A stretch of 64,000 bases of DNA from Clostridia bacterium (GTDB lineage: Bacteria; Bacillota; Peptococcia; DRI-13; SM3-B62). The stretch covers positions 37,413 to 101,412 of the forward strand of contig JAHDSQ010000017.1 of NCBI GenBank assembly GCA_018432615.1, written 5' to 3'. Each line of letters starts with the position of its first letter. The stretch's first letter is position 1. Under the pieces are notes generated by a model that was given only the letters and a program-made list of their open reading frames with translations, made no database searches and had not been told where the DNA came from. The position numbers were made by a program, and so were the translations under genes. This document shows positions 29,262-55,994 of this stretch, in pieces.

Positions 29262-29289
29262 ACGGCATGTCTGTTGGCTGCATATATTA
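29262..29289 (+). promoter_or_regulatory. Putative sigmaK/sigmaE promoter of the cotJ operon
   Basis: AC-N17-CATATATTA matches the sigmaK consensus AC-N17-CATANNNTA. Confidence 0.65.
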
Positions 29290-29319: not shown

Positions 29320-29742
29320 ATGCGAAATTATACGTTTAAGGTAAGACCCAGGCCTGAAAAACCGGAGAATAAAGAAGTAAAAGAAGAAGCCGGACCGCAG
29401 GGGCCAATGCAATTTCCTTTTGGTGGGCCTTGCCCGCCAAAGCCCGTCATGCCGAAACCGGAACCTCCGCAGATTCCGTGCCCAGAACCCCCACAGATTC
29501 CGTGCCCGGAAATGCCGTATTATCAGCCGAGCCCTATGCCCTACCAACCATACATGGAATATCCGTATATGCCGGAATACCAGATGTGTCCGGAGAGACT
29601 GGCACATGCTTATGTACCCTGGCAATACTACAACGTAATTTATTCTCCAGGCGAGGGCTTGGAAAAAGGAACAATATTCCCTGAACTATTTATGCCCAAA
29701 GGAGTTTACGGATACGGAGGTGCCCCCTATGCATACAGATAG
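29320..29742 (+). CDS. cotJA: Spore coat protein CotJA with Pro-rich N-terminal extension
   Basis: LAHAYVPWQYY...Y.P.EGLEKGTIFPEL motif; upstream of cotJB. Confidence 0.85.
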   Translation: MRNYTFKVRPRPEKPENKEVKEEAGPQGPMQFPFGGPCPPKPVMPKPEPPQIPCPEPPQIPCPEMPYYQPSPMPYQPYMEYPYMPEYQMCPERLAHAYVPWQYYNVIYSPGEGLEKGTIFPELFMPKGVYGYGGAPYAYR

Positions 29743-29989
29743 AAGACGGATGGAGATGTTAAAGGAAATACAAGAATATGCGTTTACCGCTTTGGAGTTA
29801 AATCTCTACCTCGACACCCATCCGGGAGACAACAGGGCATTGGAGCAATTCAACCAAGTGAGTGGTGAACTCACAAGGAAAGTAGAAAAATATGAAGAAT
29901 GTTACGGGCCGCTACTGAATTATGGTTATTCAGGCGGTTCAGGCTCTCACTGGCGTTGGGTCGAAGAACCCTGGCCCTGGGAAATGTAG
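29729..29989 (+). CDS. cotJB: Spore coat protein CotJB
   Basis: F.ALELNLYLDTHP.D, YGPL, W.W...PWPWE. Confidence 0.92.
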   Translation: MHTDRRRMEMLKEIQEYAFTALELNLYLDTHPGDNRALEQFNQVSGELTRKVEKYEECYGPLLNYGYSGGSGSHWRWVEEPWPWEM

Positions 29990-30004: not shown

Positions 30005-30199
30005 ATGTGGATTTATGAGAAAAGGCTCCAGTATCCTGTACGAGTGGACGGCTGCAATGTTAAGTTAGCAAAATACCTAATCACCCAGTATGGAGGGCCG
30101 GATGGGGAACTTGCTGCGGCACTGCGTTATCTTAACCAGCGTTATACCATGCCAACGGGTAAAACAAAGGCCTTGCTGACAGATATCGGCACCGAGGAA
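30005..30199 (+). pseudogene. cotJC: 5' fragment of cotJC (Mn-catalase-family spore coat protein) interrupted by the prophage
   Basis: MWIYEKRLQYPV...QYGGPDGEL.AALRYLNQRY...LLTDIGTEE matches the CotJC N-terminus; similarity stops before the expected xAH.E, and the frame ends at 30250 in phage DNA. Confidence 0.9.
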
Positions 30200-30225
30200 C
30201 AAGTACCACGATGTTATCAATCATC
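30175..30225. other. Left prophage junction (hybrid att site)
   Basis: Point where cotJC homology is lost, next to the recombinase stop; GGCAC-N4-GA-N4-GTACC dyad centred on 30197-30198. Confidence 0.7.
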
Positions 30226-31764
30226 AATATGCTTAGGAAGTTTGGGGTAAAGCTTGAGCTCGAAATCGTCCATGGAATTCTTGTTATATCTTCCATCAAC
30301 AGTTTTCATATAAACAACTTTATCTAATACTTCTTTTAACATCTTATTTTTACTCTCTGGTGTTTTTAAATCCCAATACGATCGAACAATCTTCTTCATG
30401 GCCGGCACGATTTTTTTCTTCTGTGCTTCTGTTGTCGCTATATTTTCAATTCTTTTTTCTACCGCAGCCTTATCGAGATTTGCTTGATTAAGTTTATCCT
30501 TCAAAAGTGTAGATCGCTCCAGGAATATATCAACGGAATAAATACCCTGTTCCAATAGATCATGGAGGTTATTCATCTGTTCGGTTAAAATGTTAATTTC
30601 CTTAATAAGTCTTTTCTGAGATTTCTCTAACAGTTCTTTGTCACTAGTTTTTTCTTCTGGTGTTACATCAACAATATATTCATCCAACCACATTGACAAG
30701 GCTTGCAACAGTTTATCTTCCACGATATGCAAATGAGAACTTACATTAGTACAAGACGTAAGAGGACACATTAAAGTATCAGGGTACTTACCGCCGTATG
30801 GCCGTCTAACCATTTTCCGGCCGCAACAACCACAGATAATCAATCCAGAAAGCGGGTTTTTGACACCCAACTTTTTAGGGGCAGGAACGGACGGATTTTC
30901 GGCCATGATTGTTTGAGCAATGCTAAAAACTTCTTCACTAACTAATGGTTTGTGCAGCCCTTTAACTAGTGTGTACTCTTCCGCTCTTGGGCGTTCCTTT
31001 ACTACTTCACCATCTATCATTTTTTTTATGGCCGCCCGATAACCCCGCCTGATCATGCCTATATAAACAGGGTTAGTTAAAATCCCCCGGATTGTTGCCG
31101 GTACCCAAACTCCACCTTTTGCGGTTGGAACTTTCATGTCATTTAGTCGTCTGCAAATTATAGATACTCCGCTGCCGTTTATGTAAAGATCAAATATCAT
31201 TACTACTACGGGAGACTGCTCCGGATGTGGATCCAAGGTATAACCTTTATCTCCAACAATCTTGATCCTGTTGTAGCCATAAGGTGGTATATTCCCAACA
31301 TACTTGCCTTGTTTTACAGAGGACATTATACCCTGCTGCAGTCTGCGGTTAATAGTTTTGTATTCTCGGCGGCTCATAAAAAGGCCAAATTCGAAATACT
31401 CCTCATCAAATTCATTCAATGGATCATATGTTTTTACAGGAGTAATAATCTTGGTCCCGGAATATTTGAATGTCTGAGCAACCAATCCCTGATCCATTGT
31501 ATCACCGCGGGCTAATCTTTCAACTTCTACCACAAATATACCCTGCCAAAGACCCTGCTCGACCTCAGATAAGATTTGTTGCATGACAGGACGAGAAGCA
31601 ATTGTCTCTCCGGACACAACCTCCCGATAAATGGTTTTAATTGAGATGCTTAGCCGCTTAGCTGTATCCCACAATATCTTTTCATGCCGGGCAAGGGTTT
31701 CACCTTCGCCTCTGGCTTCAGCTTCAACATCTGCTCTGGACTTTCTGAGATACATGCAGTACAT
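30217..31764 (-). CDS. Large serine recombinase (phage integrase)
   Basis: YLRKSR catalytic Ser, EVVSG, ERLARGD, PPYGY recombinase domain, CGCCG...C.LTSC zinc ribbon, coiled coil. Confidence 0.95.
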   Translation of the reverse strand: MYCMYLRKSRADVEAEARGEGETLARHEKILWDTAKRLSISIKTIYREVVSGETIASRPVMQQILSEVEQGLWQGIFVVEVERLARGDTMDQGLVAQTFKYSGTKIITPVKTYDPLNEFDEEYFEFGLFMSRREYKTINRRLQQGIMSSVKQGKYVGNIPPYGYNRIKIVGDKGYTLDPHPEQSPVVVMIFDLYINGSGVSIICRRLNDMKVPTAKGGVWVPATIRGILTNPVYIGMIRRGYRAAIKKMIDGEVVKERPRAEEYTLVKGLHKPLVSEEVFSIAQTIMAENPSVPAPKKLGVKNPLSGLIICGCCGRKMVRRPYGGKYPDTLMCPLTSCTNVSSHLHIVEDKLLQALSMWLDEYIVDVTPEEKTSDKELLEKSQKRLIKEINILTEQMNNLHDLLEQGIYSVDIFLERSTLLKDKLNQANLDKAAVEKRIENIATTEAQKKKIVPAMKKIVRSYWDLKTPESKNKMLKEVLDKVVYMKTVDGRYNKNSMDDFELKLYPKLPKHIDD

Positions 31765-31765: not shown

Positions 31766-32374
31766 TTATATCACCCGACTTTGAAAGAAAATTGCTTTTC
31801 CAAGAATACGGATTTGTTTGAAATCCTTTTCCGAATAGTAGCGTGGTTGATACTTGCAGTTTTCTGGGCGAAGAATCACGCCGCCATTATTGTGGTAAAA
31901 CCTTTTAAGTGTCACCTCATCGTCAATCATTACGGCAGCAATTTCTCCGTTTTCAACAGTAGGTTGTTGTCGTATAAAGACAGTATCGTCATTATTTATA
32001 CGGGCTTCAATCATACTATCACCATTAACTTTAATGCAAAAATCCACGTCTAAATCATAATCTACTGTAATATATGCTGTGCATTCTTCAGCGCAATAAA
32101 TTGGTTCTCCTGCGGCTATCGTGCCAAGCAGGGGGACTTTTTTTGTTCTTAGCGGCATAATGCCTTCAACTTCTTTTTTGCTTTTGGGAAAAAAGTGAGA
32201 CACCGGAACATCAAATATATCAGCCAGAATACTTATTTTGTCCATTAACGGTCTATTCTCACCCCGTTCCCATGATGATACGGTAGTCGGAGCGATGTCT
32301 AGCATTTTTGCTAATTCAGCTTGAGTTAAACCTTTTACAACTCGCATTTCTTTTATAATTTTGCCTACATTCAA
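31766..32374 (-). CDS. CI-like repressor (XRE HTH + S24 peptidase)
   Basis: LTQAELA...VSSWERG HTH; IAAG cleavage site, V.GDSM and TLKRF catalytic motifs; likely TTG start at 32374 after AAGGTGG. Confidence 0.92.
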   Translation of the reverse strand: MNVGKIIKEMRVVKGLTQAELAKMLDIAPTTVSSWERGENRPLMDKISILADIFDVPVSHFFPKSKKEVEGIMPLRTKKVPLLGTIAAGEPIYCAEECTAYITVDYDLDVDFCIKVNGDSMIEARINNDDTVFIRQQPTVENGEIAAVMIDDEVTLKRFYHNNGGVILRPENCKYQPRYYSEKDFKQIRILGKAIFFQSRVI

Positions 32375-32427: not shown

Positions 32428-32770
32428 AGTACAGTATAAATGTAGTTATGATACACATATAAAAAGAAAATACGGAAATTCTGAAAATAACTCTTGAAAC
32501 TACGGAAAAAATGTAGTACCATAATCTCATAAGAGAGGGGGGAGGAAAATGGAAAATAGAAAATTCACTATAGAACAAGCAAGGATACTAGGAGGATATA
32601 ACCAAATTGAAATGGCTGAAGCACTTGGAATGACAGAAAAAACTTATATCAATTATGAAAAGTATCGTCAAGTATTCCGGATGCATGTCGGCTATTTATT
32701 TGCTGATTTAGTAGGTATGACTGTAGATGACATTATTTTTTTTGACCCTGAACTACGGAAAAAATGTAGC
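32428..32770. promoter_or_regulatory. CI/Cro operator set (TAC-N9-GTA dyads) and rightward promoter
   Basis: Identical 19-mer AACTACGGAAAAAATGTAG at 32498 and 32751; variants near 32428 and 32469; TTGAAA-17-TACCAT at 32494-32522. Confidence 0.7.
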
Positions 32771-32773
32771 TAA
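32549..32773 (+). CDS. Cro-like HTH protein
   Basis: AR...GYNQIEMAEALG.TEKTY.NYEK; divergent from the repressor. Confidence 0.85.
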   Translation: MENRKFTIEQARILGGYNQIEMAEALGMTEKTYINYEKYRQVFRMHVGYLFADLVGMTVDDIIFFDPELRKKCS

Positions 32774-32818
32774 GCAGAACGAACTTCGCTGCATACATTA
32801 TCCCAGGGGAGTGAGGAA

Positions 32819-34412: not shown

Positions 34413-34907
34413 ATGTCACTTAGCAGCACAATAAACAACACAGTAAGACAAGCCGTAAAAAAGGCTGCGATGGATATCACAAAGGATTTGGATTTGCCGC
34501 GGATTAAATCTCGCTTGGAGGATCTGCCGGGCGAGATACGCAACCAGAAAAATATTGTTCAGAATTGTAGGCAGGTCCTAAACGACTTAGCTGTTCAAAA
34601 AGAACAGGAAGAAGCTTTACTTTACTCCATGATTTCCAGCGAGATCGGCGAGAATGGTAAGACCAAATACAGCAACAAGGAAGCCAGGGACGCGGAATTG
34701 ATTCAAAGGAAGCAAACTTCTCCTACCTATCAAAAAATCGAACAAAGCTGCAAAGAAGCTGAGTCAAGATTAAATAAGGAACAGTTTGTTTTGGAATCGC
34801 TTCAAGACGAATTTAGATCTCTTAGGATAGTCGCCAAGATCACGTGTAAAGAATTATCCCTACTGGGGCTAGAAAATGATGAGGAGGATGATGTAGATGT
34901 CTACTAA
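34413..34907 (+). CDS. Coiled-coil phage protein
   Basis: GGAGGTG RBS; helical heptads, KYSNKEARDAE motif. Confidence 0.7.
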   Translation: MSLSSTINNTVRQAVKKAAMDITKDLDLPRIKSRLEDLPGEIRNQKNIVQNCRQVLNDLAVQKEQEEALLYSMISSEIGENGKTKYSNKEARDAELIQRKQTSPTYQKIEQSCKEAESRLNKEQFVLESLQDEFRSLRIVAKITCKELSLLGLENDEEDDVDVY

Positions 34908-35628
34908 TAACGAAAAATCGTTAACCACTGTCACCGAGGAAATGTTGCCAACCCTATTAGATCAAGAACTCAATAATATGATGCAGATGGATGGGTTTGA
35001 CTATCGGCCAGGGAAAATTGGTATTATGCACCGCGAGAAAAAGTTTGTCGGTACTGATGGCCAGACCTCTAGTTCCATAAAAGGGGTAGTTGTGTATTTC
35101 CACAAGGCGCGTGGATACTGGCAGGAGGAGGGGCAGCAAATTCCCACCTGCAGCTCAATGGATGGAAAGACTGGCAGTTTGCGGCTTGATAACGATACCA
35201 CAGAGCAACGTACCTGTGTAAAATGCCCGTACAATGTTTTTGGATCCGACCCAAAAGGGGGAGCGGGGAAAGCTTGTAAAGAAATGCGCCGTCTGTTTTT
35301 GGTCGAGGAAGATTCAATTCTACCGGTAATCCTCAATATCCCGCCAACAAGCTTACGTGCCTTTGACCAATATATGAGCGGCTTGCTGAGCAAAAAGAAA
35401 GCTCCTATAGCTTATTATACGGTTTTCCGTTTGGAAGGAGCAAAAGGAGCCGGCTTTGATTACTCCAAGGTTGCTTTCGAGCTGGGCGAACAGTTGCCGC
35501 ACGCCAAGATACTTGAATTGCTGCAGATGCGTGATCAGGTAGTGGCTGCCGCCGCGAAGATTGGCATTGAAGCTGATGATTATATGAACGAAGGGGAAAC
35601 CCTGAGTGACGATAAGGAAATTTACTAG
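34897..35628 (+). CDS. Putative Zn-binding ssDNA-binding/recombination protein
   Basis: CSS.DG...CVKCPYN.FGS...GKACK four Cys; acidic C-terminal tail; lies ahead of the SbcCD-like genes. Confidence 0.5.
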   Translation: MSTNNEKSLTTVTEEMLPTLLDQELNNMMQMDGFDYRPGKIGIMHREKKFVGTDGQTSSSIKGVVVYFHKARGYWQEEGQQIPTCSSMDGKTGSLRLDNDTTEQRTCVKCPYNVFGSDPKGGAGKACKEMRRLFLVEEDSILPVILNIPPTSLRAFDQYMSGLLSKKKAPIAYYTVFRLEGAKGAGFDYSKVAFELGEQLPHAKILELLQMRDQVVAAAAKIGIEADDYMNEGETLSDDKEIY

Positions 35629-35693
35629 GCAAATAACAGGCCCGGGGGAGCAATCCCCCCGGGCAAGCCTCACAGAGAGGAGGAACATAAATT

Positions 35694-37121
35694 TTGAACT
35701 ACATTGAATCGTTAACCCTAGAAAACTTCCAGTCTCATAAAAAAACAACCATTATACCGGCCCCTTCCGGACAACTTACTGTTATTGTGGGCCCATCTGA
35801 CTCAGGCAAAACGGCCATTATCCGCGGTTTAAAGCTCTTAGCGTATAACTCGCCTTCCGGAATTGACTATATCCAAGTGGGATCTCAGTCGGCAGCCGTA
35901 TCTGCCATTATGGAGGACGGCACGAAGGTGTCTCGAGAACGTTCCCGGGGCGGGGTGAATCGGTACTTGCTGGGCAAACAGAAATATGAAGGTTTTGGCG
36001 TTGGGAATCCACCGTTAGAAATCCGGCAAGCTTTGGGAATCTCCCCTATTGATATCGGCGACCAAAGCTTCAACTTAAACCTTTCGGAACAACTTGATGG
36101 CCCCTTCCTTGGCAATTCCGTGCCGGTCACAGCCAAAGCAAAGGTACTGGGCAAACTCTCCGGAGTGGAAGAGATTGATTACGCTGGAAAAACCCTAGGC
36201 ACAGACATATACCGCAAGAAGCGCGACAAGGAAGGGTATGAGAACCAAGTTAGGCACCTTACAGAAGAGATAGAAGGTTATACCTACTTGGATGAGCTGG
36301 AGCCATTAATAGATCTAATTGAAAAACAGGTTGTCCGGCTAAAAGAGAAGCAGTCAAAAAAGGAAAAGCTATCTGAATTGAAATTATGCTTGGTCAGCAC
36401 CCGGGCCGCTATTACCCAAGAAGAACAAAAAATAGCCAGCCTCTGCAACATCAATGACGCTTATACCACTCTCAATGGCACTGAGAGCAAGCAACAAAGA
36501 TTACAGAGACTGACACGTTCAAGAAATGAACTCAACTCTATTATACCTCAAATCAGGAACTCTGAGGATATAGTAGAGGCAACAAAAGATATTGATAGTA
36601 TTGCTTTGGTTGTTTCCGCTGCTTCAGAAAAGTATAACAAGTTGACCTCGCTCAGAGCGTTGCTCGGCAATAGAAACACTTACAAGGCAGAGTTGAGCTC
36701 AATACAGGTAGTTTTGGAAGCTACTCAAGGCATATCTGAAACATTAGAAACCGTTGAAAAGCTTTACGACAAATCCGAGAAATTATACGCACTGAAGTTA
36801 AAAAAGAAGTCGCTAGAATGGATACAGAAAGACATGTTGTACAATAACAAAGTCTTAGAGAACACACAAAACATTGATGACTTGCTTGCAAAAACAGAAG
36901 AATTAACTGCCAAAGTGTACAGAACTAGCGGATTAAAAGTCAGAAGAGATCTGTGCAAGCAAAAGAAAGACGAAATAGAGGAAGCAACACGTCAAATCGG
37001 TACTTTTGAAAAAACTGTCGAGAGCTTAACCAAAGACTTGACGGATCTCTTTATGGAGGCCGGGACCTGCCCGATGTGCGGTAGTGAAATGAACCTTGAA
37101 AAATTGAAGGAGGTAATTTGA
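35694..37121 (+). CDS. Rad50/SbcC-like ATPase, N-terminal half ending in a zinc hook
   Basis: LENFQSH, Walker A GPSDSGKT, Q-loop region, coiled coil, terminal CPMCG. Confidence 0.85.
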   Translation: MNYIESLTLENFQSHKKTTIIPAPSGQLTVIVGPSDSGKTAIIRGLKLLAYNSPSGIDYIQVGSQSAAVSAIMEDGTKVSRERSRGGVNRYLLGKQKYEGFGVGNPPLEIRQALGISPIDIGDQSFNLNLSEQLDGPFLGNSVPVTAKAKVLGKLSGVEEIDYAGKTLGTDIYRKKRDKEGYENQVRHLTEEIEGYTYLDELEPLIDLIEKQVVRLKEKQSKKEKLSELKLCLVSTRAAITQEEQKIASLCNINDAYTTLNGTESKQQRLQRLTRSRNELNSIIPQIRNSEDIVEATKDIDSIALVVSAASEKYNKLTSLRALLGNRNTYKAELSSIQVVLEATQGISETLETVEKLYDKSEKLYALKLKKKSLEWIQKDMLYNNKVLENTQNIDDLLAKTEELTAKVYRTSGLKVRRDLCKQKKDEIEEATRQIGTFEKTVESLTKDLTDLFMEAGTCPMCGSEMNLEKLKEVI

Positions 37122-37373
37122 GTGAGCGAATATGCTGGTAAAATAAATAGCTTAAAAGCAGCCTTGGAAAAGGCGAAAATGGATAAAGTCAAGGCAGAGC
37201 AAAACAAGGAAAACTTGGATAAACGACTCGAGGAAATCGAGACTGAAATTAAAGCCTTGGGCGTGGATCCGGCACAGTTGGAAGAAACGATTACCAATCT
37301 GGATACGGAGATACAGGCTGATTTATTAAGCGTTGAGCAGCTTATCCCGGCTCAATACAAGCAGGTGATATGA
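37122..37373 (+). CDS. Short coiled-coil protein (middle piece of the split SbcC module)
   Basis: AAGGAGG RBS; heptad pattern; lies between the two ATPase halves. Confidence 0.7.
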   Translation: MSEYAGKINSLKAALEKAKMDKVKAEQNKENLDKRLEEIETEIKALGVDPAQLEETITNLDTEIQADLLSVEQLIPAQYKQVI

Positions 37374-38017
37374 TGCTGCACAACATCGAAGCGTCCCTTT
37401 CAAGGATGCAAGAAACTTATTCAGAAGGTGTCGGGGCTCGTAATAGAGCCCTGACACAAAAAGCTGAGAATGAAAGATTGTTGTCCGAAGCAATCAATCT
37501 TATCTCCACTTGGGAGCAAGTACAACTACTCCTGACCAAGACAAGCGAGTATGCCCGGCAGCAGCTCAAAGCCCGAATCGAAGAGACAGTCACAGCAGCC
37601 CTACAAGCAGTGTTTGGGGAAGAACTGCAGTTCAGAATCATCATAAAAGAGTTCCGTGATCAATCTGCGGCCGAGTGGAAGGTGGTCTCTAAATATGGAG
37701 ATATGGAGATTGAAGCAGACCCTCAGGATGCCAGAGGCGGAGGGATAGTTGATATTGTATCTTTGGCACTCCGACTTGCAATGATGGAGCTGGCCCGGCC
37801 AAAGGTGACGGGCCCTGTGGTACTGGATGAACCCGGGAAAATGGTTAGCAAGGAGTATTCAGCTAACATGGGATATTTCCTCAAGCAGTATGCAGAGAAA
37901 ACAGGTCGTCAAGTAATCCTGGTCAGTCACAACGAGGACCTTATAGCGGCTGCCGATGTGGTATATCGGGTAAGTAAGAATAGTTTGGGTGAAAGTGTGG
38001 TGGTATTGGATGGCTAG
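37370..38017 (+). CDS. Rad50/SbcC-like ATPase, C-terminal half
   Basis: ARGGG signature, SLALRLA, Walker B VVLDEP, H-loop QVILVSH. Confidence 0.85.
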   Translation: MMLHNIEASLSRMQETYSEGVGARNRALTQKAENERLLSEAINLISTWEQVQLLLTKTSEYARQQLKARIEETVTAALQAVFGEELQFRIIIKEFRDQSAAEWKVVSKYGDMEIEADPQDARGGGIVDIVSLALRLAMMELARPKVTGPVVLDEPGKMVSKEYSANMGYFLKQYAEKTGRQVILVSHNEDLIAAADVVYRVSKNSLGESVVVLDG

Positions 38018-39002
38018 ATTTGTAATCGTTGGTGACCCACAGTTCCGTGGCGTGAATCCTATCGCCAGGAAAGATGATTTCCCTTCGGCCATCCTTGCTA
38101 AGATCGATGAAGTACATCAAATTGCCAAGCGTGTTAGTGCCGATGCTATTCTACAGCCGGGAGATCTCTTTGACAGTCCGATGGTGAGCTATAGTGTATT
38201 ACTGAGACTTATGGTTATGTTGCAGATGGCTCCTTGTCCGTGGATAACAATACCTGGGAACCATGATCTTTTTGGATCCAATGCAGATACTTATCCCCGG
38301 ACACCGATGGCGGTGCTGGAACAGGCCAAAGTAATCAATGTATTAAAAAACAATTCACTATATTTCCCTATCGATATGGAAACAGGGCATTTCACTAAAG
38401 ATGCTATCACTATTACTGGCCGTGGATTCGACTGGGAAATGGACGCTAACCATAGCACATATACTGCACCAGTAAATTCCGATATTCATATGGTCCATGG
38501 AATGTTAGTACAAGAACCCCTGCCGATTGCTGCGAAGCATACCCTTATCAAGGATGTGCAAACTCCAGCCCGTGTCACCATTTGCGGCCATGATCACCTG
38601 GGCTTCGGAATCATTCGCCGCCCGGACGGCAAGATATTCATCAACCCCGGAGCACTCTGTCGCGAAACGGCCCACACTGCAGAAATGGAACGGCAAGTCC
38701 AGGTAGCTATACTGGATATAACCAAGGATAAAGATGAATCCTGGTTGGAACCAATCACTTGCGCAAGACCGGCAGAAGAAGTCCTCTCTCGGGAGCATAT
38801 TGAAGCCCAGTCATTACGCAAGGAGCGAATGGACTATTTCCTGACCCTTTTGGGGCAAGAAAGCGAAAGCAAGTTCCTTGAGGTACGGGAAATCATTGAT
38901 GGCATAGCAAGCAAAGAAGCCTTGCCGGCAACGATCAAAGATGAAGCCATGAAACGGATTGCCGCGGCACGTGAAGAATTGGCAAGGAGGGGTGTCGCAT
39001 GA
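38010..39002 (+). CDS. Mre11/SbcD-like metallophosphoesterase nuclease
   Basis: GDPQ, GDLFD, PGNHD, VHG, CGHDH and NPGAL motifs. Confidence 0.88.
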   Translation: MARFVIVGDPQFRGVNPIARKDDFPSAILAKIDEVHQIAKRVSADAILQPGDLFDSPMVSYSVLLRLMVMLQMAPCPWITIPGNHDLFGSNADTYPRTPMAVLEQAKVINVLKNNSLYFPIDMETGHFTKDAITITGRGFDWEMDANHSTYTAPVNSDIHMVHGMLVQEPLPIAAKHTLIKDVQTPARVTICGHDHLGFGIIRRPDGKIFINPGALCRETAHTAEMERQVQVAILDITKDKDESWLEPITCARPAEEVLSREHIEAQSLRKERMDYFLTLLGQESESKFLEVREIIDGIASKEALPATIKDEAMKRIAAAREELARRGVA

Positions 39003-41209
39003 GTGTTCCGGCGAGAGCCATGAACGAAACGACAACCGAAACATTGAGAGGCGTTCTCATTCGACCCAGGTTCTATAATGCTGACAATGGCTTTGCAATC
39101 CTTTCGGTGGATCATAATGATGTAACAATAACCTGTAAGGGGTACCTGCCCAGCGTGCGGCCGGATGAAGAATATGAGTTCACCGGTGAATGGGTAAACG
39201 ACCCGAAGTGGGGAAGGCAATTCCAATTCACTAAGGCTGAGGTGCTTTTACCGAGCACAACAAATGGGGCAGTGCGGTACCTATCATCTATAGCCAAAGG
39301 GGTAGGCCCTGCAACCGCCAAGAAGATTATCGATGCTCTTGGCGGCGAAACTGCCTTGCAAAGTATCATAAGCAATCCAACTAAGCTATACTCCCTCCAA
39401 TTCCTCAAACAGTCCCAGGCTGATGATATTGTGGAATCTCTCATGCAAAACACCGTCCTGGCAGAGTTGTCATCTTTAATCTGCCGGGACGGTATCGGCC
39501 CGGGGACGGCCGCAAGGATTTATGCTAAGTACGGTCCGGAAGCTGTCAAGAAGGTCAAGGAAAATCCTTATATCATTACTGATGATGTTTTCGGGATAGG
39601 CTTCAAAAAAGCCGATGCGATTGCTCGGCAATTGGGTGTTGAACCAGACAGCCCATACCGCATAGAGGCGGCATATACATACATGCTACAAGAAGCAACT
39701 AACGAGGGACATGTCTTTCTGCGGCCCAATGACACTATCCGGAAGTTAAAAACCTTACTTGGGCCTGATTTTGGCAGTGATGAAAAAATTAGATTAATAG
39801 CTGAAGCTTGTCGGACACTACAATCCCGCGGCAAGGTGAAAAGGGAAAATTACTTAGACGAATTAACCGACAAAGAGCGCAGTGCTATATATGATACAGA
39901 ATTGTACGAAGCTGAAACAGAATTAGCCCGGAGAATAAAATATCTTTTGGCTGAAGATGAGCAGCCCTGGACAGGGATAGAGGACCGCATCACCGCCCAG
40001 GAAACTGATATGAAAATAGAGTATGCTGCGCAACAGAAAACGGCCATAGCCGTAGCTTTAAGAAATGCATTGTCGGTGATTACCGGCGGCCCCGGTACCG
40101 GTAAATCGACAGTAACAAAAGCTATATGTAATATCTACACAGAAACATATCCTCACCGGCCGATCTATTTAGCCAGCCCGACCGGCAAGGCCTCGAAACG
40201 GCTCGAAGAAGCCACCGGCAGAGAGGCTAAAACAATCCACCGGTTGCTCAGATACATTCCGGAGTGCGGATTCGAGTACAACGAGGACAACCCTCTCCCA
40301 GGGCCCGGGCTTTTGATTGTGGATGAGGTGTCAATGATGGATGTGCAGTTAGCTTGCAGCCTTTTTCGCGCCATCGATGTCGGTATGACGATCGTATTGG
40401 TTGGAGATGAGGACCAGTTGCCGAGTGTTGGTCCGGGGAAGGTTTTAGCCGATATCATCGCCTCCGGAGTAGTGCCGGTCGTGCGGTTGCAATTCAACTA
40501 TCGGCAAGCCGGTGGAAGCAAGATCGCCGAATATGCTCATTGGATAGTGACCGGACGGGTCCCTCCGTTAGTGCAAAAAGACGGTGATTATGAATGCTGT
40601 GTATGTGATGATCCGGAAGAGATCCGGAATAAGATTGCTGATATAGTCAACGATGCTTTGGCACAGGGTATGAGTATAATGGATTTCCAAGTGCTTGCCC
40701 CGATGAGACGTAACAGTATTGGTGTGCAAGCTCTGAATGAGATGGTGCGGGAAATTGCCAATCCCCCGGAGGAAGGTAAGCCGGAATACAAATACAACAA
40801 ATTCACTACTTACCGGCTTGGGGATAAAGTCATGGTAATCAAAAACGACTATCAGCTGGGCGTGTTCAATGGCGACATGGGCGTTGTTCGAGAAGTGCTT
40901 GATAATGGCATTGTTCTCGATATAGACGGGTGGGAGTATACATTCAACCACCGCGACATGGACAAGCTGATACATGCCTATGCGATCACGATCCACAAGA
41001 GCCAGGGTAGCGAATGGCCGTTAGCGATAGTGATTTGCCACACGCAAAGCTACATTATGCTGCAGCGTAACTTGATTTACACCGGAATAACGAGGGCCAA
41101 AAACCGGCTGGTGCTGTTGACCAACAATCGCGGTATAAAGCGAGCCGTGGAGAACGACAAACAAGCCGAAAGGCTGAGTTTGCTGAAAATGAGATTAAGG
41201 AGGAATTAA
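38999..41209 (+). CDS. RecD2-like SF1B helicase
   Basis: HhH GVGPATA/GIGFKKAD, GGPGTGKS, SPTGKAS, DEVSM, GDEDQLPSVG, YAITIHKSQGSE. Confidence 0.93.
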   Translation: MSVPARAMNETTTETLRGVLIRPRFYNADNGFAILSVDHNDVTITCKGYLPSVRPDEEYEFTGEWVNDPKWGRQFQFTKAEVLLPSTTNGAVRYLSSIAKGVGPATAKKIIDALGGETALQSIISNPTKLYSLQFLKQSQADDIVESLMQNTVLAELSSLICRDGIGPGTAARIYAKYGPEAVKKVKENPYIITDDVFGIGFKKADAIARQLGVEPDSPYRIEAAYTYMLQEATNEGHVFLRPNDTIRKLKTLLGPDFGSDEKIRLIAEACRTLQSRGKVKRENYLDELTDKERSAIYDTELYEAETELARRIKYLLAEDEQPWTGIEDRITAQETDMKIEYAAQQKTAIAVALRNALSVITGGPGTGKSTVTKAICNIYTETYPHRPIYLASPTGKASKRLEEATGREAKTIHRLLRYIPECGFEYNEDNPLPGPGLLIVDEVSMMDVQLACSLFRAIDVGMTIVLVGDEDQLPSVGPGKVLADIIASGVVPVVRLQFNYRQAGGSKIAEYAHWIVTGRVPPLVQKDGDYECCVCDDPEEIRNKIADIVNDALAQGMSIMDFQVLAPMRRNSIGVQALNEMVREIANPPEEGKPEYKYNKFTTYRLGDKVMVIKNDYQLGVFNGDMGVVREVLDNGIVLDIDGWEYTFNHRDMDKLIHAYAITIHKSQGSEWPLAIVICHTQSYIMLQRNLIYTGITRAKNRLVLLTNNRGIKRAVENDKQAERLSLLKMRLRRN

Positions 41210-41212
41210 CTA

Positions 41213-41752
41213 ATGGATACAAATTTTGAGGAGTCCAAACGTTTGTTTATACAAGCGGAAAGGATAGTAGCTGAATATAATGATAATTTTAGCCACTTAA
41301 TAGATCTGTTTGAAAAGAATTTAATAGGATTTTATTTCCGCAAAGATAATCCGAAATGGGCCGGAAAATGCAAAAAAACCACAGAATTTGAACGAGAAAT
41401 CACAGGGAAACTTATTTTTATCTTTGTTAATCAGAAATGGTGGAATGTAACGAATACAAAACAACATAAAGCTTTACTTGACCATGAGATGTCTCATATT
41501 GGCCGTAAAAATGATGAACCAGAGTACTGCAAGGAAATAGGAATTTTTAAACGCTGGAATCCAGCTGATAATCCATCATCCTGGTGTATCATCGAACACG
41601 ACATAGAAGAGTTTGCCGGTGTTGTGGAACGTCATGGGCTTTGGGAATTAGGAATAGAACGGATTGCTGATGCTTGCGCAATTCATGAAAGGCAAATGAC
41701 CATCAATGAACTTATTGATACTAAAGGAGCCAAAGTAGTTGCTATTTCCTAA
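41213..41752 (+). CDS. Putative phage metallopeptidase-like protein
   Basis: ALLDHEMSH (HExxH), HDIEEF..VV.RHG. Confidence 0.75.
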   Translation: MDTNFEESKRLFIQAERIVAEYNDNFSHLIDLFEKNLIGFYFRKDNPKWAGKCKKTTEFEREITGKLIFIFVNQKWWNVTNTKQHKALLDHEMSHIGRKNDEPEYCKEIGIFKRWNPADNPSSWCIIEHDIEEFAGVVERHGLWELGIERIADACAIHERQMTINELIDTKGAKVVAIS

Positions 41753-41782
41753 TCATGAAGCCCGGCAAAAGGTGGTGACAGC

Positions 41783-44674
41783 TTGAATACTCAAGACTTA
41801 GAACAAATCCTATCTCAGCTTGATAATATAAAATTCTTTGAGGCTAATGGTTTACGGCCCAAAAAGAAAACCGGCAAATCATGGCCATGCGAATGCCCTT
41901 TTTGCGGTGACAAGAAACACTTGAATTTTGACCCTAAAACAGGGCTTTGGCAGTGTTTTAAATGCAATGAATCAGGGAATGCCGTAAGTTTCTACGCGAA
42001 AAGGCACAACTGTACTAATGGAGATGCTGTCAAGGCCATAAAAGAGTTTATGGGCATTGTGGATGAGCCGCAGCCGTCAAGAAAAAATAACAAAGCTAAA
42101 AGCAAGACTAACTCCAAACAAAAAAAAGAGGATCCAAAGAACGTTGGTCCAGCCAAGCCTCAAATATATGACAGGCTCATCCAGCTAGCCCAGTTAACAC
42201 CGGAGCACCGCGAAGAGTTGCAGAAGAAACGCGGATTCAATGACAAGATCATTGACAGCCTCCGGTTCCGCTCCGGCGGAGACTACATGATCGGCGTTGT
42301 GCAGCAGATACAAGATGAATATGAGGAATCTGATTTAGTTTCAGCGGGGATCCTGGTGGACGTGAATGGTTCTACTATTATTAACGATCAACTGAAAGAT
42401 GGACGGATCCTTATCCCTTATCTTGACGCTGCCGGAAATTGTTATCACTTACGGCCGCACAAATTAGGCTTCAAGGATATTCCTCCGGAAGCATATTGCC
42501 GCTTGTTGCTGCGTAATAAACCTGAGCATGTTGTTATTACAGAGGGTGAGTTTAAAGCGGCCGCACTTTTGCAATGGGGCATCCCTGCTTTGGCTATTCC
42601 GGGTGTTTCCACTTTTGGCAAGCTCTATTTCGAGCGGTTTTTGCAATTCCTCAAGGAACATAACATCAAAAAAACGACGATCATTTTTGATTCCGAAGAG
42701 AAGGGCAATCCCGAATACCCTAACTATAAAGAAAAGGCCGAAGATCGTTACGATACGGAATATTGGTCGTATTTTATGGGATATCAACTCAGCAGACATG
42801 GAGTAAGCACAAAGATCGGATGGCTGCCGGCCGAATGGCGCGAAAACGGGAAGATTGATTTTGACGGTGCTCTGGCTCAAGGCCGAAGCAAAGAGGATAT
42901 TATCCAGGTGATCAGCAAGGCCAAAACACCTAAAGAGTACAAAAACTCGCTGGATGAGGAAGCTCATAAAATAGTTGAACGCAAGCTGGCCCGCTATTTT
43001 GCCAAGGAGAAGATCAAGCGTGATTTTAACAGATATATTGCCCTCCGGTTCACGAAGGACAAGTCTTGGGAGGAAACGATTAGTAATTTTGTTATAAATA
43101 TCAAGTCAAGTTTCTACACACCCTCCGGCGTGGTCAGGAACGTGGAACTTGTCAATCAGTACGGTGAAGCTTCAGAGACTTTTGTTTTGGAACCAGGATC
43201 CATGGCCGGCGTGAATGAGTTTAAAAAATTTTTACTCTCTAAAGGCAATTATCTCTTTTACGGCAAGGGCGATGATCTGACTAACATTTGGGAGTATGAG
43301 TTTCTGCGCGACACCGGAGAGCTGATCTGGATGCCGGAAAAAATCGGGAAGATCTCCGGAGATATATGGTTGTTTGGAAATATGGGGATCAAGGACGGTA
43401 AGTGTTACCCGCCGGATAATGACGGAATAATTTGGATTGACAAACGCGGGTACAAGCCTCAGTCGCTGCGTGTTGGGCCCGGAGGTGAGCCGTTAGAGGA
43501 TTCAATCCCGGCCCTGAGTATCCGGCATATAGACATCAAGGAAATTGCCTATAAGCTGAAACAAAGCATTGGCGGTTATGAGGCATATATGGGCATTGGT
43601 TGGGTTGTGGCTGCGATTTTTGCCGATGAGATTTTCCGGGTTTATAAATGTTCGCCTATCCTTTTCCCACATGGCAAACGGGAAAGCGGCAAATCAACCT
43701 TTATGCGTTGGTTGATGAATTTCTTCGGGATTGAAACGGAGGGAATCTCGGTCGGCCGGACAACAACACAAAACTTTGTGGCCCGGATCCTTTCCTATCG
43801 ATCATGTATCGGGGTTTGGTTTGATGAATACCGAAACGAACTCGGTGTCGTGGAAAAAGACGGGTTATTCCGCAGTGCATACAATCGGCAGGTATCAGGG
43901 AAAGGAACAGCTACGGCGTTTCAGGCAAAAGGATTTAGCGTCAACGCAGTGATGGCTATTAGTGGGGAAGAGCTGCCTAAGGATAACGGTCTATTTACAC
44001 GCTGTATCCCGTTGCAGATATCTTCCTACAAGAGAGACCGTACTTGGTACGACTGGTTGAACAAAAACTCAGTGCAGTTCTCGTCCTTTGCATATCATTT
44101 GTTGCTACATTATGAGGAATACAAAAAGAAGGTCCTGCAAAGTATTGCTGAGCTGAAACGTGCACTGATTAAGCTAGACGTTACTGATCGTACTGCTGAG
44201 AACTGGGCTATTTGTGCGGCTGCCTTTGAAGCTACGGTTATGGAAGACGATGGATTTATCCGATGGGTTGAAAAGAGCTGCCAGGAAATCAAACGCACCG
44301 GCGAAGAGGAACATATGCTTAACCAATTCTGGGAAGATGTAAACTATTTGGTGAGTAACAATGATGTCGGTTTTAAGCATATCAGGGTAAGTGGGGACAA
44401 GCTGTATGTTTGGTTAGCGGGGTTATATGAAACATGGGCCTTGCACTATAAGAAAAAAACAGGTAGAGAACCATTTGATAGACAGTCAATCATTAAATAC
44501 TTACAAGACGAGCCTTACTATATTACAGCAGAACCACGAAAAATGGGATCTGTTTCAAGAAAAGTCCATATTCTCGGTATTGAATCTGCCACGGATATTA
44601 TCAAGGAAATTTCTTGTGCACTGGATATCCAAACAGAAATTACCGAAAACTCATCAAAACTACCTGGCTATTAA
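41783..44674 (+). CDS. Primase-helicase (Zn finger + TOPRIM + P-loop)
   Basis: CPFCGD..H...WQCFKC, ITEGEFKA, IIFDS, DFD, Walker A GKRESGKST, WFDEY. Confidence 0.88.
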   Translation: MNTQDLEQILSQLDNIKFFEANGLRPKKKTGKSWPCECPFCGDKKHLNFDPKTGLWQCFKCNESGNAVSFYAKRHNCTNGDAVKAIKEFMGIVDEPQPSRKNNKAKSKTNSKQKKEDPKNVGPAKPQIYDRLIQLAQLTPEHREELQKKRGFNDKIIDSLRFRSGGDYMIGVVQQIQDEYEESDLVSAGILVDVNGSTIINDQLKDGRILIPYLDAAGNCYHLRPHKLGFKDIPPEAYCRLLLRNKPEHVVITEGEFKAAALLQWGIPALAIPGVSTFGKLYFERFLQFLKEHNIKKTTIIFDSEEKGNPEYPNYKEKAEDRYDTEYWSYFMGYQLSRHGVSTKIGWLPAEWRENGKIDFDGALAQGRSKEDIIQVISKAKTPKEYKNSLDEEAHKIVERKLARYFAKEKIKRDFNRYIALRFTKDKSWEETISNFVINIKSSFYTPSGVVRNVELVNQYGEASETFVLEPGSMAGVNEFKKFLLSKGNYLFYGKGDDLTNIWEYEFLRDTGELIWMPEKIGKISGDIWLFGNMGIKDGKCYPPDNDGIIWIDKRGYKPQSLRVGPGGEPLEDSIPALSIRHIDIKEIAYKLKQSIGGYEAYMGIGWVVAAIFADEIFRVYKCSPILFPHGKRESGKSTFMRWLMNFFGIETEGISVGRTTTQNFVARILSYRSCIGVWFDEYRNELGVVEKDGLFRSAYNRQVSGKGTATAFQAKGFSVNAVMAISGEELPKDNGLFTRCIPLQISSYKRDRTWYDWLNKNSVQFSSFAYHLLLHYEEYKKKVLQSIAELKRALIKLDVTDRTAENWAICAAAFEATVMEDDGFIRWVEKSCQEIKRTGEEEHMLNQFWEDVNYLVSNNDVGFKHIRVSGDKLYVWLAGLYETWALHYKKKTGREPFDRQSIIKYLQDEPYYITAEPRKMGSVSRKVHILGIESATDIIKEISCALDIQTEITENSSKLPGY

Positions 44675-44976
44675 CCAAAAGTAGTCGGAAAGTAGTTGCC
44701 CAGGTAGTCGGTTTAAAACATTAAGCGACAAGGGATTTGAAGGTTGCGACTACCTGACTACCTCACTTTCCCGGAAAAAATATTTTTCAAAAATACTTTT
44801 CATTATTTCAATAAGTTTTTCTTTATCTTTTAGCAGTCAACTAAAAAAATATATGCGTTTTCTAAAAACCCAGGTAGTCGAGGTAGTCGGATTCTCGTAA
44901 GCCTTGCAATAAAAGAATTATAGCGACTACCTGAGGAACTACCTAGCGACTACCTCAAAAGTAGTTCAGGTAGTCG
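44658..44976. repeat. Iteron-type replication origin: about 13 copies of (CAG)GTAGT(CG) in both orientations flanking an AT-rich core
   Basis: CAGGTAGTCG at 44701, 44871 and 44967; CGACTACCTG at 44747 and 44924; further variants; AT-rich 44775-44869. Confidence 0.8.
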
Positions 44977-44999
44977 CCAATAAAAAAGGGATGGTGAAA

Positions 45000-45434
45000 A
45001 TGGGAAGATACGATCAGCTATTAAGCAATAACACTCAGAAGGATCCCTTGCCAAAAAACAATACAGACCCTCGTCCCGATATAGTCCAAGATCATCGTTT
45101 ATGGCTCAAAATACTGGTTAACGCAAAAGAGTTGTTCAATGAATCCAACCTTTTTGAAGTTTTACACGGGATTCGCTGCGGCGGTGGAATGCTGGAAGAA
45201 ACGAAAAGAGCATTCAAACTGCATCCAGGAAATGAAGAGTGGGCGGATCCGCATGAGTGGACCAGGGTGAAACAAAAATGGCTCGACCCTGTGAAGGATG
45301 ATTTATTAAATCTTTTCCGATTATCGAAAATTGGACAAGTAACGGATCAGGAATTACCACCGGGTGTTTTCGAAGAAGAAGCCATAGAAACAAAAGAACG
45401 TAAGCAAGAGTGCTTATTTAAGGGAGGAGCTTAG
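45000..45434 (+). CDS. Hypothetical phage protein
   Basis: Open frame after the origin, coupled to the next gene. Confidence 0.7.
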   Translation: MGRYDQLLSNNTQKDPLPKNNTDPRPDIVQDHRLWLKILVNAKELFNESNLFEVLHGIRCGGGMLEETKRAFKLHPGNEEWADPHEWTRVKQKWLDPVKDDLLNLFRLSKIGQVTDQELPPGVFEEEAIETKERKQECLFKGGA

Positions 45435-45435
45435 G

Positions 45436-45810
45436 ATGAGTATAAACAGTAGAGATAAGGGTGCCCGGGGAGAACGTGAATTTGCTGCACTATGCCGGGC
45501 AGAAGGGTATGACGGCTGCCGGAGAGGTCAGCAGTATAACGGTATTGAAGGCGAAGATGTGGTTGGGTTGCCATACATGCATGTTGAAGTAAAAAGGGTT
45601 GAGAAACTCAATATTGATAAAGCTATGGCCCAATCTATGCAGGATTGTAGCGGGAAAATCCCGATTGTGGCACACCGAAAAGATAGGTGTTCTTGGCTCA
45701 TTACGATGAAGGCTGAAGATTGGTTTATGTTGTTCCGTGAATTTTGCTCAGGCGAAGTGTTGAAGGAGGTTGCCGCCAATGAAAAAACAAATAATCATCC
45801 CCAAGGGTAG
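45436..45810 (+). CDS. Putative Holliday junction resolvase (PD-(D/E)XK)
   Basis: SRDKGARGERE, D.VGLP..HVEVKR, PIVAHR. Confidence 0.75.
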   Translation: MSINSRDKGARGEREFAALCRAEGYDGCRRGQQYNGIEGEDVVGLPYMHVEVKRVEKLNIDKAMAQSMQDCSGKIPIVAHRKDRCSWLITMKAEDWFMLFREFCSGEVLKEVAANEKTNNHPQG

Positions 45811-48055: not shown

Positions 48056-48871
48056 ATGAACACGGTCCTAAAATATCCCGGTAGTAAATGGAGTTTAGCG
48101 GAATGGATTATCTCAAACTTTCCGTCCGGATACGAGAATATGACTTACCTGGAACCCTTTTTTGGCAGCGGGGCCGTCTTTTTCAATAAGAATCGAAGCG
48201 TGATCGAGACAATAAACGACCTTGACGGAAATGTAATCAATCTTTTCAAGCAGATACGAGACAATCCGGAAGTATTGGCTAAGGTGGTTAAATATACGCC
48301 TTGGTCCCGCGAGGAATACGCTCTGAGTTATCACAAGACAGGGGAAGAACTAGAGGACGCCCGCCGTTTTTTGGTCCGTATGTGGCAAGCTATAGGCGCT
48401 AAAAGTAGCGATAGAACCGGTTGGAGAAGTAATATACAGGCGCTCAACGGTAATGTGCCACAATGGGCAACAAAATTGCCAGAAAACATTATTGCTATAG
48501 CAGACCGGCTGAGGCACTCGAATAATCGGCTTGTGCAGATTGAGAACCGCCCGGCTGTAGATTGCATAAAAAGATATGCCAGAGAAAATGTATTTATCTA
48601 CGCGGATCCTCCGTATGTTCTGAGTACAAGAAGCAAAAGGATATATGCTTGCGAAATGAAAGACGCTGACCATGTAGAACTATTACAATTGCTTATTAAG
48701 CATCCGGGGCCAGTGATGATTTCCGGGTACGCGAATGACATATACACATCCATCCTGTCCGGATGGAAAACACTTACCAAGTCGGCGCATTGCGAGGGTG
48801 GATTGACAAGAGAAGAGATCTTATGGATGAACTACGAGCCACCAGCGGAACAATTAAGCATTACGTTTTAG
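48056..48871 (+). CDS. DNA adenine methyltransferase (Dam/D12 class)
   Basis: KYPGSKW, YLEPFFGSGAV, ETIND, YADPPY. Confidence 0.9.
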   Translation: MNTVLKYPGSKWSLAEWIISNFPSGYENMTYLEPFFGSGAVFFNKNRSVIETINDLDGNVINLFKQIRDNPEVLAKVVKYTPWSREEYALSYHKTGEELEDARRFLVRMWQAIGAKSSDRTGWRSNIQALNGNVPQWATKLPENIIAIADRLRHSNNRLVQIENRPAVDCIKRYARENVFIYADPPYVLSTRSKRIYACEMKDADHVELLQLLIKHPGPVMISGYANDIYTSILSGWKTLTKSAHCEGGLTREEILWMNYEPPAEQLSITF

Positions 48872-48906
48872 TGAACAACACAACAAAATTGCGAAGGAGT
48901 GAGAAT

Positions 48907-49128
48907 ATGGCTAAATGTAGAAAATGCCTACACGGCGCAAGGATAAGCATAACAGGTACTAATAAAAAGACCCTTAAAATGGACATGGGTGGTGCTGTAC
49001 TATATCTTATGCCTAAAAGCAATGGGAAAATGGAAGTAGCGCTAAATAGTGAAAACCTAAGTGAGGGCGATTATGCCTCTGCAACATGGGACGGGGAGCA
49101 ATGGTATTACGCTACCGGAAAGGAGTGA
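48907..49128 (+). CDS. Hypothetical phage protein
   Basis: AAGGAG RBS; N-terminal CRKC. Confidence 0.6.
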   Translation: MAKCRKCLHGARISITGTNKKTLKMDMGGAVLYLMPKSNGKMEVALNSENLSEGDYASATWDGEQWYYATGKE

Positions 49129-49136
49129 AACATCTT

Positions 49137-49523
49137 ATGACCAAAGAGCAGCTGCGCCAATATAGGTACCTAAAAAAAGAAATTATATTGCTGCAGGAAG
49201 AAATCCAGCAGCTAAGGACAAGCCTTCAGGCGGTTCCTCAACTGGATGGTATGCCGCATAGCAACTTTGCTGCAGATCGGACGGCGGGAGTAGTAGCCAA
49301 GATTGTTGACCTCGAAGCGCAGCTGCACAAAACACTTCGTGACATGATTGATCTGCGCGGAGAAATTGAGGAATGTATTGAGGGGCTGCCAGCTGATCAG
49401 CGGTTGTTGATGAGGCTGAGGTATATCGAGGGGCTGAGGTGGGCAGCCGTTGCGGTGGAGATGAATTATAGCTATAAACAGGTATGTAGGATTCACGGGA
49501 AAGTATTGCAAGTAATTAAATAA
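49137..49523 (+). CDS. Late transcriptional activator (DUF1492/ArpU/RinA-like)
   Basis: MT.EQL.QY, GMP, LRYIEG..W..VA.EM.YS...V.RIH; last gene before the packaging module. Confidence 0.8.
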   Translation: MTKEQLRQYRYLKKEIILLQEEIQQLRTSLQAVPQLDGMPHSNFAADRTAGVVAKIVDLEAQLHKTLRDMIDLRGEIEECIEGLPADQRLLMRLRYIEGLRWAAVAVEMNYSYKQVCRIHGKVLQVIK

Positions 49524-49525
49524 AG

Positions 49526-49560
49526 ATGTCCCAAAATGTCCTAAACATCTGTGGTATTAT
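49526..49560 (+). promoter_or_regulatory. Putative late promoter
   Basis: ATGTCC direct repeats at 49526 and 49536, then extended -10 TGGTATTAT. Confidence 0.6.
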
Positions 49561-49670
49561 GGTAGTGTAGAATTAAGCACTTGCAGATGCAGGTGCATTT
49601 TGTTTTGCAAGGCAGCCGCAAGGCGGGGAATGTACACTTTGATATAGCGGGGCGGGGGCTGAGAAGTGTA

Positions 49671-50346: not shown

Positions 50347-50398
50347 ATATAAGACAGAAGAAACGCACCAAAAATCTCGCGTGACAGGGGGTGGTAAT

Positions 50399-52367: not shown

Positions 52368-52383
52368 GGAGGTGATCTACTAA

Positions 52384-54401: not shown

Positions 54402-54425
54402 TTTTAATTTAAGGAGTGAAAAACA

Positions 54426-55982: not shown

Positions 55983-55994
55983 GAGGCGTGAAGG

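Follow-up and report, generated by a model that had tools for sequence, protein, structure and literature searches.

Introduction

Active lysogeny, in which phages mediate the rebuilding of sporulation genes, has been established for sigK, spsM, spoVFB, spoVR, and gerE, in few experimental systems that are mostly from Bacilli. Here, we analyzed a 64,000-nt stretch of DNA (hereafter, the window; C42:37413-101412 of a metagenome bin of 70 contigs and 3.16 Mb from an uncultured member of Clostridia), in which a prophage with a large serine recombinase (LSR, the integrase) interrupts the spore coat gene cotJC, and we discuss whether this prophage may be excised when its host sporulates.

SPbeta, which we take to be about 134 kb long, lies in spsM of B. 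subtilis and is, like the window element, a complete inducible-type siphovirus prophage with an LSR in a mother-cell spore-envelope gene. A small recombination directionality factor (RDF), SprB, decides the direction of its LSR, SprA, and excision rebuilds spsM (PMC4191935, PMC5499854). The window element differs from SPbeta in its target, which is cotJC at a metal-ligand motif, in its uncultured clostridial host, in an RDF candidate without detectable sequence similarity to SprB, and in its length of 38 kb; for the window element, sporulation-specific excision is a prediction. The C. difficile skin element has a constitutive LSR and a 72-aa RDF controlled by sigmaE and a SpoIIID motif (PMC5025042). 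The window element resembles this pair (CD1231 as LSR, CD1234 as RDF) in that its LSR would be constitutive and a small protein of no known family would act as the switch; in its relatives, an exact SpoIIID-consensus box precedes the small gene. Unlike skin, which is degenerate and lies in the regulator gene sigK, the window element interrupts a structural coat gene as a full phage, and it has no SpoIIID box. The gin element in gerE of B. cereus (GirC and GirX; PMC5595907) has its likeness in two mini-elements of the present family (loci L098 and L084), which hold an LSR with a small partner; unlike gin, which has three recombinases and restriction-modification genes, the window element is a whole prophage. 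Paenibacillus phage phiIBB_Pl23 shares with the window element an S24 repressor followed by the LSR, a homologue of the small protein, and an attP site with a cotJC-like core, but the class of its host is Bacilli.

Interruption of cotJC is already in print: a skin-like element interrupts cotJC of Laceyella sacchari (Galperin et al., bioRxiv 10.1101/2022.02.25.481979), and cotJC is named, after Abe et al. 2013, as a frequent target of integration in a preprint on SPbeta relatives (10.1101/2021.11.22.469490). The accessible parts of this literature, with the supplements and Abe et al. 2013 itself outside the scope, describe no cotJC insertion point, integrase clade, RDF, or excision test. A preliminary description of the window had proposed an active-lysogeny switch in cotJC; its account of the prophage structure holds, but the idea is less new than it implied. 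Judged by sequence, the window prophage is another element of the skin/SPbeta type, and the picture at the level of the family may be new.

Insertion of the prophage in cotJC

We found that the element lies inside the coding sequence of cotJC, which comes third in a cotJA-cotJB-cotJC operon preceded by a sigmaK-type consensus motif. The features at the left junction are as follows (window coordinates).

29262..29289, plus strand: sigmaK-type promoter-like motif AC-N17-CATAtatTA, 31 nt upstream of the cotJA ATG (consensus match)
29320..29742, plus strand: cotJA (PF11007 CotJA, E 3.2e-14; ATG 29320 behind AGGAGG)
29720..29989, plus strand: cotJB (PF12652 CotJB, E 4.4e-29, profile positions 2-76 of 76)
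30005..30200, plus strand: cotJC 5' part, 65 codons and 1 nt (PF05067 positions 1-66 of 284, E 6.5e-23)
30197..30200, no strand: attL common core GAAC with the crossover inside; the two junction points share the four bases on their left and none on their right
30206..30223, no strand: 18-nt phage arm, an exact inverted repeat of the far-end arm (C42 about 105663-105680, outside the window)
30217..31764, minus strand: LSR (integrase), 515 aa (Resolvase PF00239, Recombinase PF07508, Zn_ribbon_recom PF13408)

Both cotJA and cotJB are intact and occur as a single copy each in the genome. The preliminary description had placed these intact genes behind a sigmaK-type promoter, and this holds, the promoter being a consensus match and not a mapped one. 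A pattern scan for AC-N16-17-CATAnnnTA in 29000-36000 gave one match only, the site upstream of cotJA. In the list of open reading frames (ORFs), the cotJA frame starts at TTG 29299. From work on B. subtilis and C. difficile, we take the cotJ genes to be expressed in the mother cell.

The 5' part of cotJC closes with both Glu codons of EExxH (...DIGTEE); in CotJC, the residues of this motif presumably bind Mn, as we take from Mn-catalase structures. The ORF at 30005-30250 comprises 65 Mn_catalase residues followed by 16 unrelated codons and a stop. Host DNA stops at 30200 (...GAGGAAC), and phage DNA begins at 30201. The earlier account had this switch 17 bp before the LSR stop codon; the switch is as described, but the stop codon (30217-30219, minus strand) is 16 nt from the host/phage junction. 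It had also recognized correctly that the cut takes away the His of the motif and everything after it.

When the whole genome was scanned with the Mn_catalase profile, five matches were obtained: the cotJC 5' part, a cotJC 3' piece, a full-length distant paralogue on C70, and two weak matches on C32. The 3' piece (profile positions 63-195) is at C42:105681-106040, about 4.3 kb past the window end. Host DNA resumes with TTGCTCAT at C42:105694, which corresponds to window-equivalent 68282 on the same contig; the element is 38,081 bp long, and its right end is at window-equivalent 68281. The arm type ..GTACC..GTTATCAAT.. is also present in relatives.

The preliminary description had asked whether the cotJC 3' half stands at the far prophage end and whether the rejoined frame is unbroken. 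The half was found 38,081 bp downstream, starting with L-A-H-L-E, and the halves joined in silico gave an open, full-length ORF of 190 aa with E-E-x-x-H at residues 64-68. The rejoined cotJC has the same length as the intact gene of a genome of the same genus (G001), with 93.2% identity and no gaps. In the Mn_catalase/CotJC (PF05067) test, the halves together cover positions 1-66 and 63-195, including the metal-ligand motif. Both are free of stop codons and 90-97% identical to the sister orthologue (96.9% for the 5' part against the gene of the sister species). Precise excision would restore a full-length 190-aa cotJC, and the reversibility of the insertion is well supported.

Four public runs with the stretch were considered, all as contigs and none listed as RNA, and a natural empty site was present in one of them. 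In run X2, which belongs to the same study as run X1, an 84,167-nt contig follows 27014-30200 at 98.6% identity (45 differences in 3,187 nt), and the 30 nt after the position of 30200 are the exact start of the cotJC 3' half. This near-identical strain with an uninterrupted cotJC fixes the junction and indicates that the insertion is recent; it is a different strain and hence no evidence of excision. In run X1 (a wastewater metagenome, possibly the source of the assembly), 27000-35000 stands on one contig of 121,591 nt with zero differences, whereas run X3 gave three 151-nt pieces and run X4 gave nothing.

Integrase clade at one cotJC codon

The LSR has the domains of a phage serine integrase, namely a resolvase domain with the catalytic Ser, a recombinase domain, and a zinc ribbon with an inserted coiled coil. 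Its closest solved structure is SPbeta SprA/YokA (9dxh, E 6.8e-50, over residues 5-487), and the Y-x-R-K-S-R block (residues 5-10), S9, and the four zinc-ribbon Cys are invariant in 46 aligned homologues. We then considered the best 80 LSR homologues in a collection of species-representative genomes (49-61% identity), whose hosts were Clostridia, Tissierellia, Oscillospiraceae, Lachnospiraceae, and Paenibacillus. A cotJC half was counted when no more than 300 nt lay between it and the LSR stop, or when it stood just upstream, and by this measure the LSR adjoins a cotJC half in 63 of the 80 loci. The 80 loci were distributed as follows.

30 loci: cotJC 5' half converging on the LSR stop, as in the window
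32 loci: cotJC 3' half on the LSR strand, with the element in opposite orientation
1 locus: cotJC 5' half upstream only
5 loci: flank of less than 250 nt, not assessable
12 loci: flank sufficient, cotJC fragment absent

The break was at the identical codon, after ...ACn-GAR-GAA, in all 65 of the 65 junctions inspected. Both insertion orientations occur at this one cotJC codon, with the LSR by the 5' half in 30 loci and by the 3' half in 32. The LSR belongs to a large clade, isolated and free phages included, that sits nearly always at one cotJC codon. Family members were also found in cultured strains, namely Alkaliphilus transvaalensis ATCC 700919, Anaeromonas frigoriresistens D2Q-11, and Paenibacillus lacisoli JX-17. 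In the GTDB class of the host, 50 of 88 genomes had an Mn_catalase match at E <= 1e-5, and in six of these 50 (G000, the window's own genome, and G020, G032, G061, G067, and G069) the match is split near profile position 58-67; G042 has a cotJC remnant with stop codons.

Two mini-elements, of 3.0 kb (L098) and 4.4 kb (L084), have both cotJC halves close together and an intact LSR, and no phage structural genes. Locus L083, considered as a minimal element of 2 kb, was dropped, as its contig ends without a cotJC 3' half after the LSR; both halves are present in L098 and L084 only. The LSR of Paenibacillus phage phiIBB_Pl23 (NC_021865) is 54.9% identical to that of the window and stands directly behind an S24 "UmuD-like" gene. 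In its attP (L106 4094-4140), the arms are palindromic and the core, read on the other strand, gives G-T-E-E. From this attP we infer that the isolated Paenibacillus larvae phage probably integrates in cotJC of its host, although its record does not annotate cotJC as the integration site. Many IMG/VR contigs have similar palindromic attP sites, as judged by eye. Among them, L226-L267 form a large cluster, many from a single dataset, with LSRs about 50% identical to that of the window; their attP core resembles cotJC T-D-E-L-A-H, a longer target mimic than that of the window phage. The integrases of Clostridium phage PhiS63, a sigK-inserting phage (PMC3442830), and of C. tetani phages are distant relatives of the LSR (about 38% identity).

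Other recombinases, and a second insertion hot spot, were observed at cotJC. In four genomes, the 3' part of cotJC is broken a second time, after ..E-D-(M/L)-A-A-(E/D), at about profile position 147-151 (L098:4582-6455; L022, that is G020:C97, 5956-9621; L058:4597-6470; L035:4624-4845). We take the Glu at this break to be the next conserved metal ligand. In three of the four genomes, the second break is flanked by an unrelated LSR clade, whose members are 69-73% identical to each other and about 20% identical to the LSR of the window. With the second break, cotJC in these four genomes is in three pieces, and two excisions would be needed. Furthermore, in L019 (G032:C178, 1761-3613), a cotJC 5' half broken at the same site as in the window adjoins another serine recombinase, about 25-27% identical to both LSR clades; more than one recombinase lineage therefore uses the site.

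Candidate directionality factor

The LSR gene is followed on its upstream side by the lysogeny and early region of the prophage, which includes a gene for a 46-aa protein.

31766..32374, minus strand: CI/LexA-like repressor (Peptidase_S24 E 3.3e-27, HTH_3 E 1.5e-13; start codon uncertain)
32500..32516, plus strand: operator-like 17-mer, copy 1, inside the cro-like sigma-70-type promoter
32549..32773, plus strand: cro-like helix-turn-helix regulator (phrog_3 and phrog_8, E about 1e-5)
32753..32769, plus strand: operator-like 17-mer, copy 2, 50 nt upstream of the candidate RDF gene
32792..32800, plus strand: CATACATTA, a -10-like element for a mother-cell sigma factor, 18 nt before the candidate RDF start codon
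32819..32959, plus strand: 46-aa candidate RDF (no Pfam or PHROG family)

Protein comparison and a modelled complex point to the 46-aa protein as a candidate RDF of the LSR. The window, L098, and L084 share this protein of about 50 aa, and a hidden Markov model built on three copies was iterated. Homologues were found at most 3 kb from the LSR in 41 of the 80 genome loci and at most 4 kb from it in 31 of 80 viral loci, and one is gene IBBPl23_33 of phiIBB_Pl23 (E 4e-9). The candidate is retained in both the 3.0-kb and the 4.4-kb element. The 46-aa protein had no family match in Pfam or PHROGs, and a profile search of solved chains did not find SprB/YotN, with no detectable similarity. Weak matches to NDUFV2, present only in the PDB-profile search, were taken as chance. 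RDFs are mutually unrelated in sequence (PMC12286644), and the missing likeness to SprB therefore does not weigh against the function.

We modelled a complex of LSR residues 296-515 with the 46-aa protein, using alignments of 37 and 46 sequences that we built ourselves. The predicted complex score had a median of 0.67 (runs 0.80, 0.66, and 0.67) versus 0.41 for the best of three controls; among solved complexes 58 of 80 attained this mark, as did 2 of 110 mismatched pairs, rates that are approximate with our own alignments. The runs share at least 65% of contacts, and the pLDDT (predicted local distance difference test) of the partner was 66-84. Modelled contacts are with LSR residues 351-370, 457-482, and 496-514, and a strand of the small protein pairs with LSR 500-507. 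Verified RDFs bind the zinc-ribbon/coiled-coil junction by beta-strand addition (PMC12286644), and the contact site predicted for the 46-aa protein is the site described for them. The model supports binding of the 46-aa protein to the LSR, without showing it. The next gene of the early operon, at 32963-33130, directly follows that of the candidate RDF and encodes a DUF6906 protein (E 2.3e-19).

Developmental or phage control

In many family members, the region upstream of the small gene carries a box that matches the SpoIIID consensus. The exact 8-mer TAGGACAA, the start of the SpoIIID consensus, precedes the small gene in 17 of 43 copies of the genome set; in total, the 80 loci contain only 25 occurrences (both strands, 1.07 Mb). 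It also precedes 12 of 31 copies of the viral set, several of which are near-duplicates (26 distinct upstream strings). In the family, this conserved box is followed by [C/A]ATA 11-12 nt later; the pattern GGACA-N10-15-[CA]ATA was present in 23 of 43 upstream regions versus 77 of 8,626 windows taken as background from these loci. The high-affinity SpoIIID consensus is TAGGACAAGC (PMC11180830), and the host genome encodes SpoIIID. On these sequence counts, mother-cell control of the candidate RDF in many family members is a well-founded inference.

The window itself differs from these relatives. Upstream of its candidate RDF gene, there is only the -10-like element CATACATTA and no SpoIIID box, and a search of 29000-36000 for KKACA-N11-13-[CA]ATA, AC-N16-17-CATAnnnTA, and a sigmaE-like pattern returned the cotJA site only. 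The 12-mer GCATACATTATC around CATACATTA is kept in L188, the closest LSR relative (63% LSR identity), where it is preceded by AC-N17.

Signs of phage control are present in the same region. The repressor and the LSR probably form one operon, as the repressor stop is 1 nt from the LSR start. A promoter scan placed the cro-like promoter TTGAAA-17-TACCAT at 32494-32522. The 17-mer CTACGGAAAAAATGTAG has two exact copies in the window versus 0.19 expected, and is probably the operator of the CI-like repressor.

Prophage content

The remaining genes of the prophage in the window, identified with PHROGs, are as follows.

34413..45810, plus strand: replication and recombination genes (SbcCD-like, exonuclease V/helicase, primase, RusA-like resolvase)
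48056..50033, plus strand: DNA methyltransferase, late transcription regulator (phrog_36), HNH endonuclease
50381..64000, plus strand: terminase small and large subunits, portal, protease, major head, connectors, major tail, tape measure, Dit, minor tail

Beyond the window, up to window-equivalent 68281, there are more tail genes, small membrane or holin-like genes, an M23 endolysin, and attR. All modules for lysogeny, replication, packaging, head, tail, and lysis are present, with zero broken genes and a gap-free ORF map. The preliminary description had noted unbroken head and tail genes, and the packaging, head, tail, and lysis genes are indeed all open. By gene content, the element is a complete-looking temperate prophage of the siphovirus type.

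Discussion

Our proposed explanation is that a cotJC-specific LSR integrated the 38,081-bp siphovirus in the EExxH motif, that the 46-aa RDF sets the direction, and that excision occurs when this RDF is made; we consider this explanation about as probable as not. The LSR would integrate the prophage between the Glu66 and Leu67 codons of cotJC, inside E-E-x-x-H, with the strongly conserved DNA encoding this motif as attB, and would be made constitutively from the repressor operon. The 46-aa protein (32819-32959) would set the direction by docking at the LSR zinc-ribbon/coiled-coil junction, like SprB on SprA, and excision would follow when it is made. On prophage induction, cleavage of the LexA-like repressor would release synthesis of the 46-aa protein, an operator copy being located before its gene. 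In relatives with an exact SpoIIID box before the candidate RDF gene, control by the mother cell is more likely. For the window prophage, excision in the mother cell has about even chances on the present sequence evidence, and its main rival is excision on induction only.

This rival is ordinary lysogeny with no developmental role: the prophage would excise on SOS only, spores of lysogens would lack CotJC, and the cotJC motif would be used merely as a highly conserved, vegetatively silent, dispensable target. We rate it slightly under an even chance, and several observations that speak for it weigh against our proposed explanation. The repressor is an S24 LexA-like protein, as in an ordinary SOS-inducible phage, and the operator copy 50 nt upstream of the candidate RDF gene suggests control by the phage repressor, which fits a phage that is excised on induction only. 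TAGGACA[AG] is absent from the whole 38-kb prophage, and the GGACA-N-CATA pattern is absent before its small gene. The prophage is recent and dispensable, being absent from the 98.6%-identical strain, and free attP forms in viral contigs, together with the isolated phage, show the clade living as ordinary phages. The loss of CotJC may also be tolerable. A second Mn_catalase paralogue in the genome (G000:C70:26916-27467) is 34-40% identical, with no cotJA or cotJB beside it, which ruled out C70 as a second copy of the cotJ operon. A weaker Mn_catalase relative of 193 aa is present at G000:C32:204778-205239. The C70 paralogue or the C32 relative could partly cover for the lost CotJC. Functional redundancy has been suggested among the CotJC-like proteins of C. 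difficile (PMC11222575). Two further points concern the strength of our own evidence: kinship among family members means that the motif counts overstate independence, and the complex score is a model result for which the solved SPbeta SprA-SprB relative may have helped the model. The contigs of run X1, in which rare variants are dropped, hold the integrated form only and are uninformative on excision either way.

Conversely, ordinary lysogeny does not readily account for the non-phage relatives of 3.0 and 4.4 kb, which keep the LSR and the small protein; this is hard to explain without selection for excision. The exact SpoIIID-consensus box before the small gene in relatives of both sets, and the conservation of the CATACATTA element with the closest relative, also argue against it. 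Furthermore, those LSR elements in mother-cell sporulation genes that were examined in PMC4191935, PMC5595907, and PMC5025042 are reported to excise at sporulation. Decay is a different matter. A cryptic prophage that has lost excision, leaving cotJC a permanent pseudogene, would have parallels in class relatives with stop-bearing cotJC remnants, such as G042 and G061, but we think it improbable here: the LSR, the repressor, and all structural genes are open and match PHROG families, the cotJC halves are as well preserved against the sister orthologue as described above, the core and inverted arms are perfect, and the site is empty in the 98.6%-identical strain. An assembly artefact, in which a phage contig was misjoined into cotJC of a metagenome-assembled genome, is the least credible reading and can almost be dismissed. 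The bin does consist of 70 contigs, and the sole run holding the whole stretch may be its own source. However, in an independent contig build (Logan) of run X1, the 121,591-nt piece covers 27000-35000 without differences, both junctions are exact with a 4-bp common core and rejoin in frame, and the same junction recurs in 63 of 80 loci of other assemblies, isolates included.

Beyond the window, the observations on the family may be read jointly, and we hold this wider reading tentatively, at somewhat less than an even chance: cotJC would be a second hub, like sigK, of phage-borne developmental rearrangement. One integrase clade, with a new RDF family of about 50 aa, would be dedicated to the codon after the metal-ligand Glu, and would span Clostridia to Paenibacillus and infectious phages to domesticated remnants of 3 kb. 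In many members, SpoIIID would turn on the RDF in the mother cell. A second, unrelated integrase clade would act at the next metal-ligand Glu (..MAAE), and some genomes would excise two elements for each CotJC. The window prophage would be a young member that still excises at sporulation, from the CATACATTA promoter.

The integrase and candidate RDF, with attB and attP of about 50 bp, are a possible orthogonal recombination tool. As cultured strains carry family members, the idea is directly testable. The locus contributes a clean case from an uncultured clostridial lineage, where the phage is complete, and it exposes a family in which one integrase clade appears to use one cotJC codon, together with a candidate new RDF family and, in many members, a SpoIIID-consensus box.

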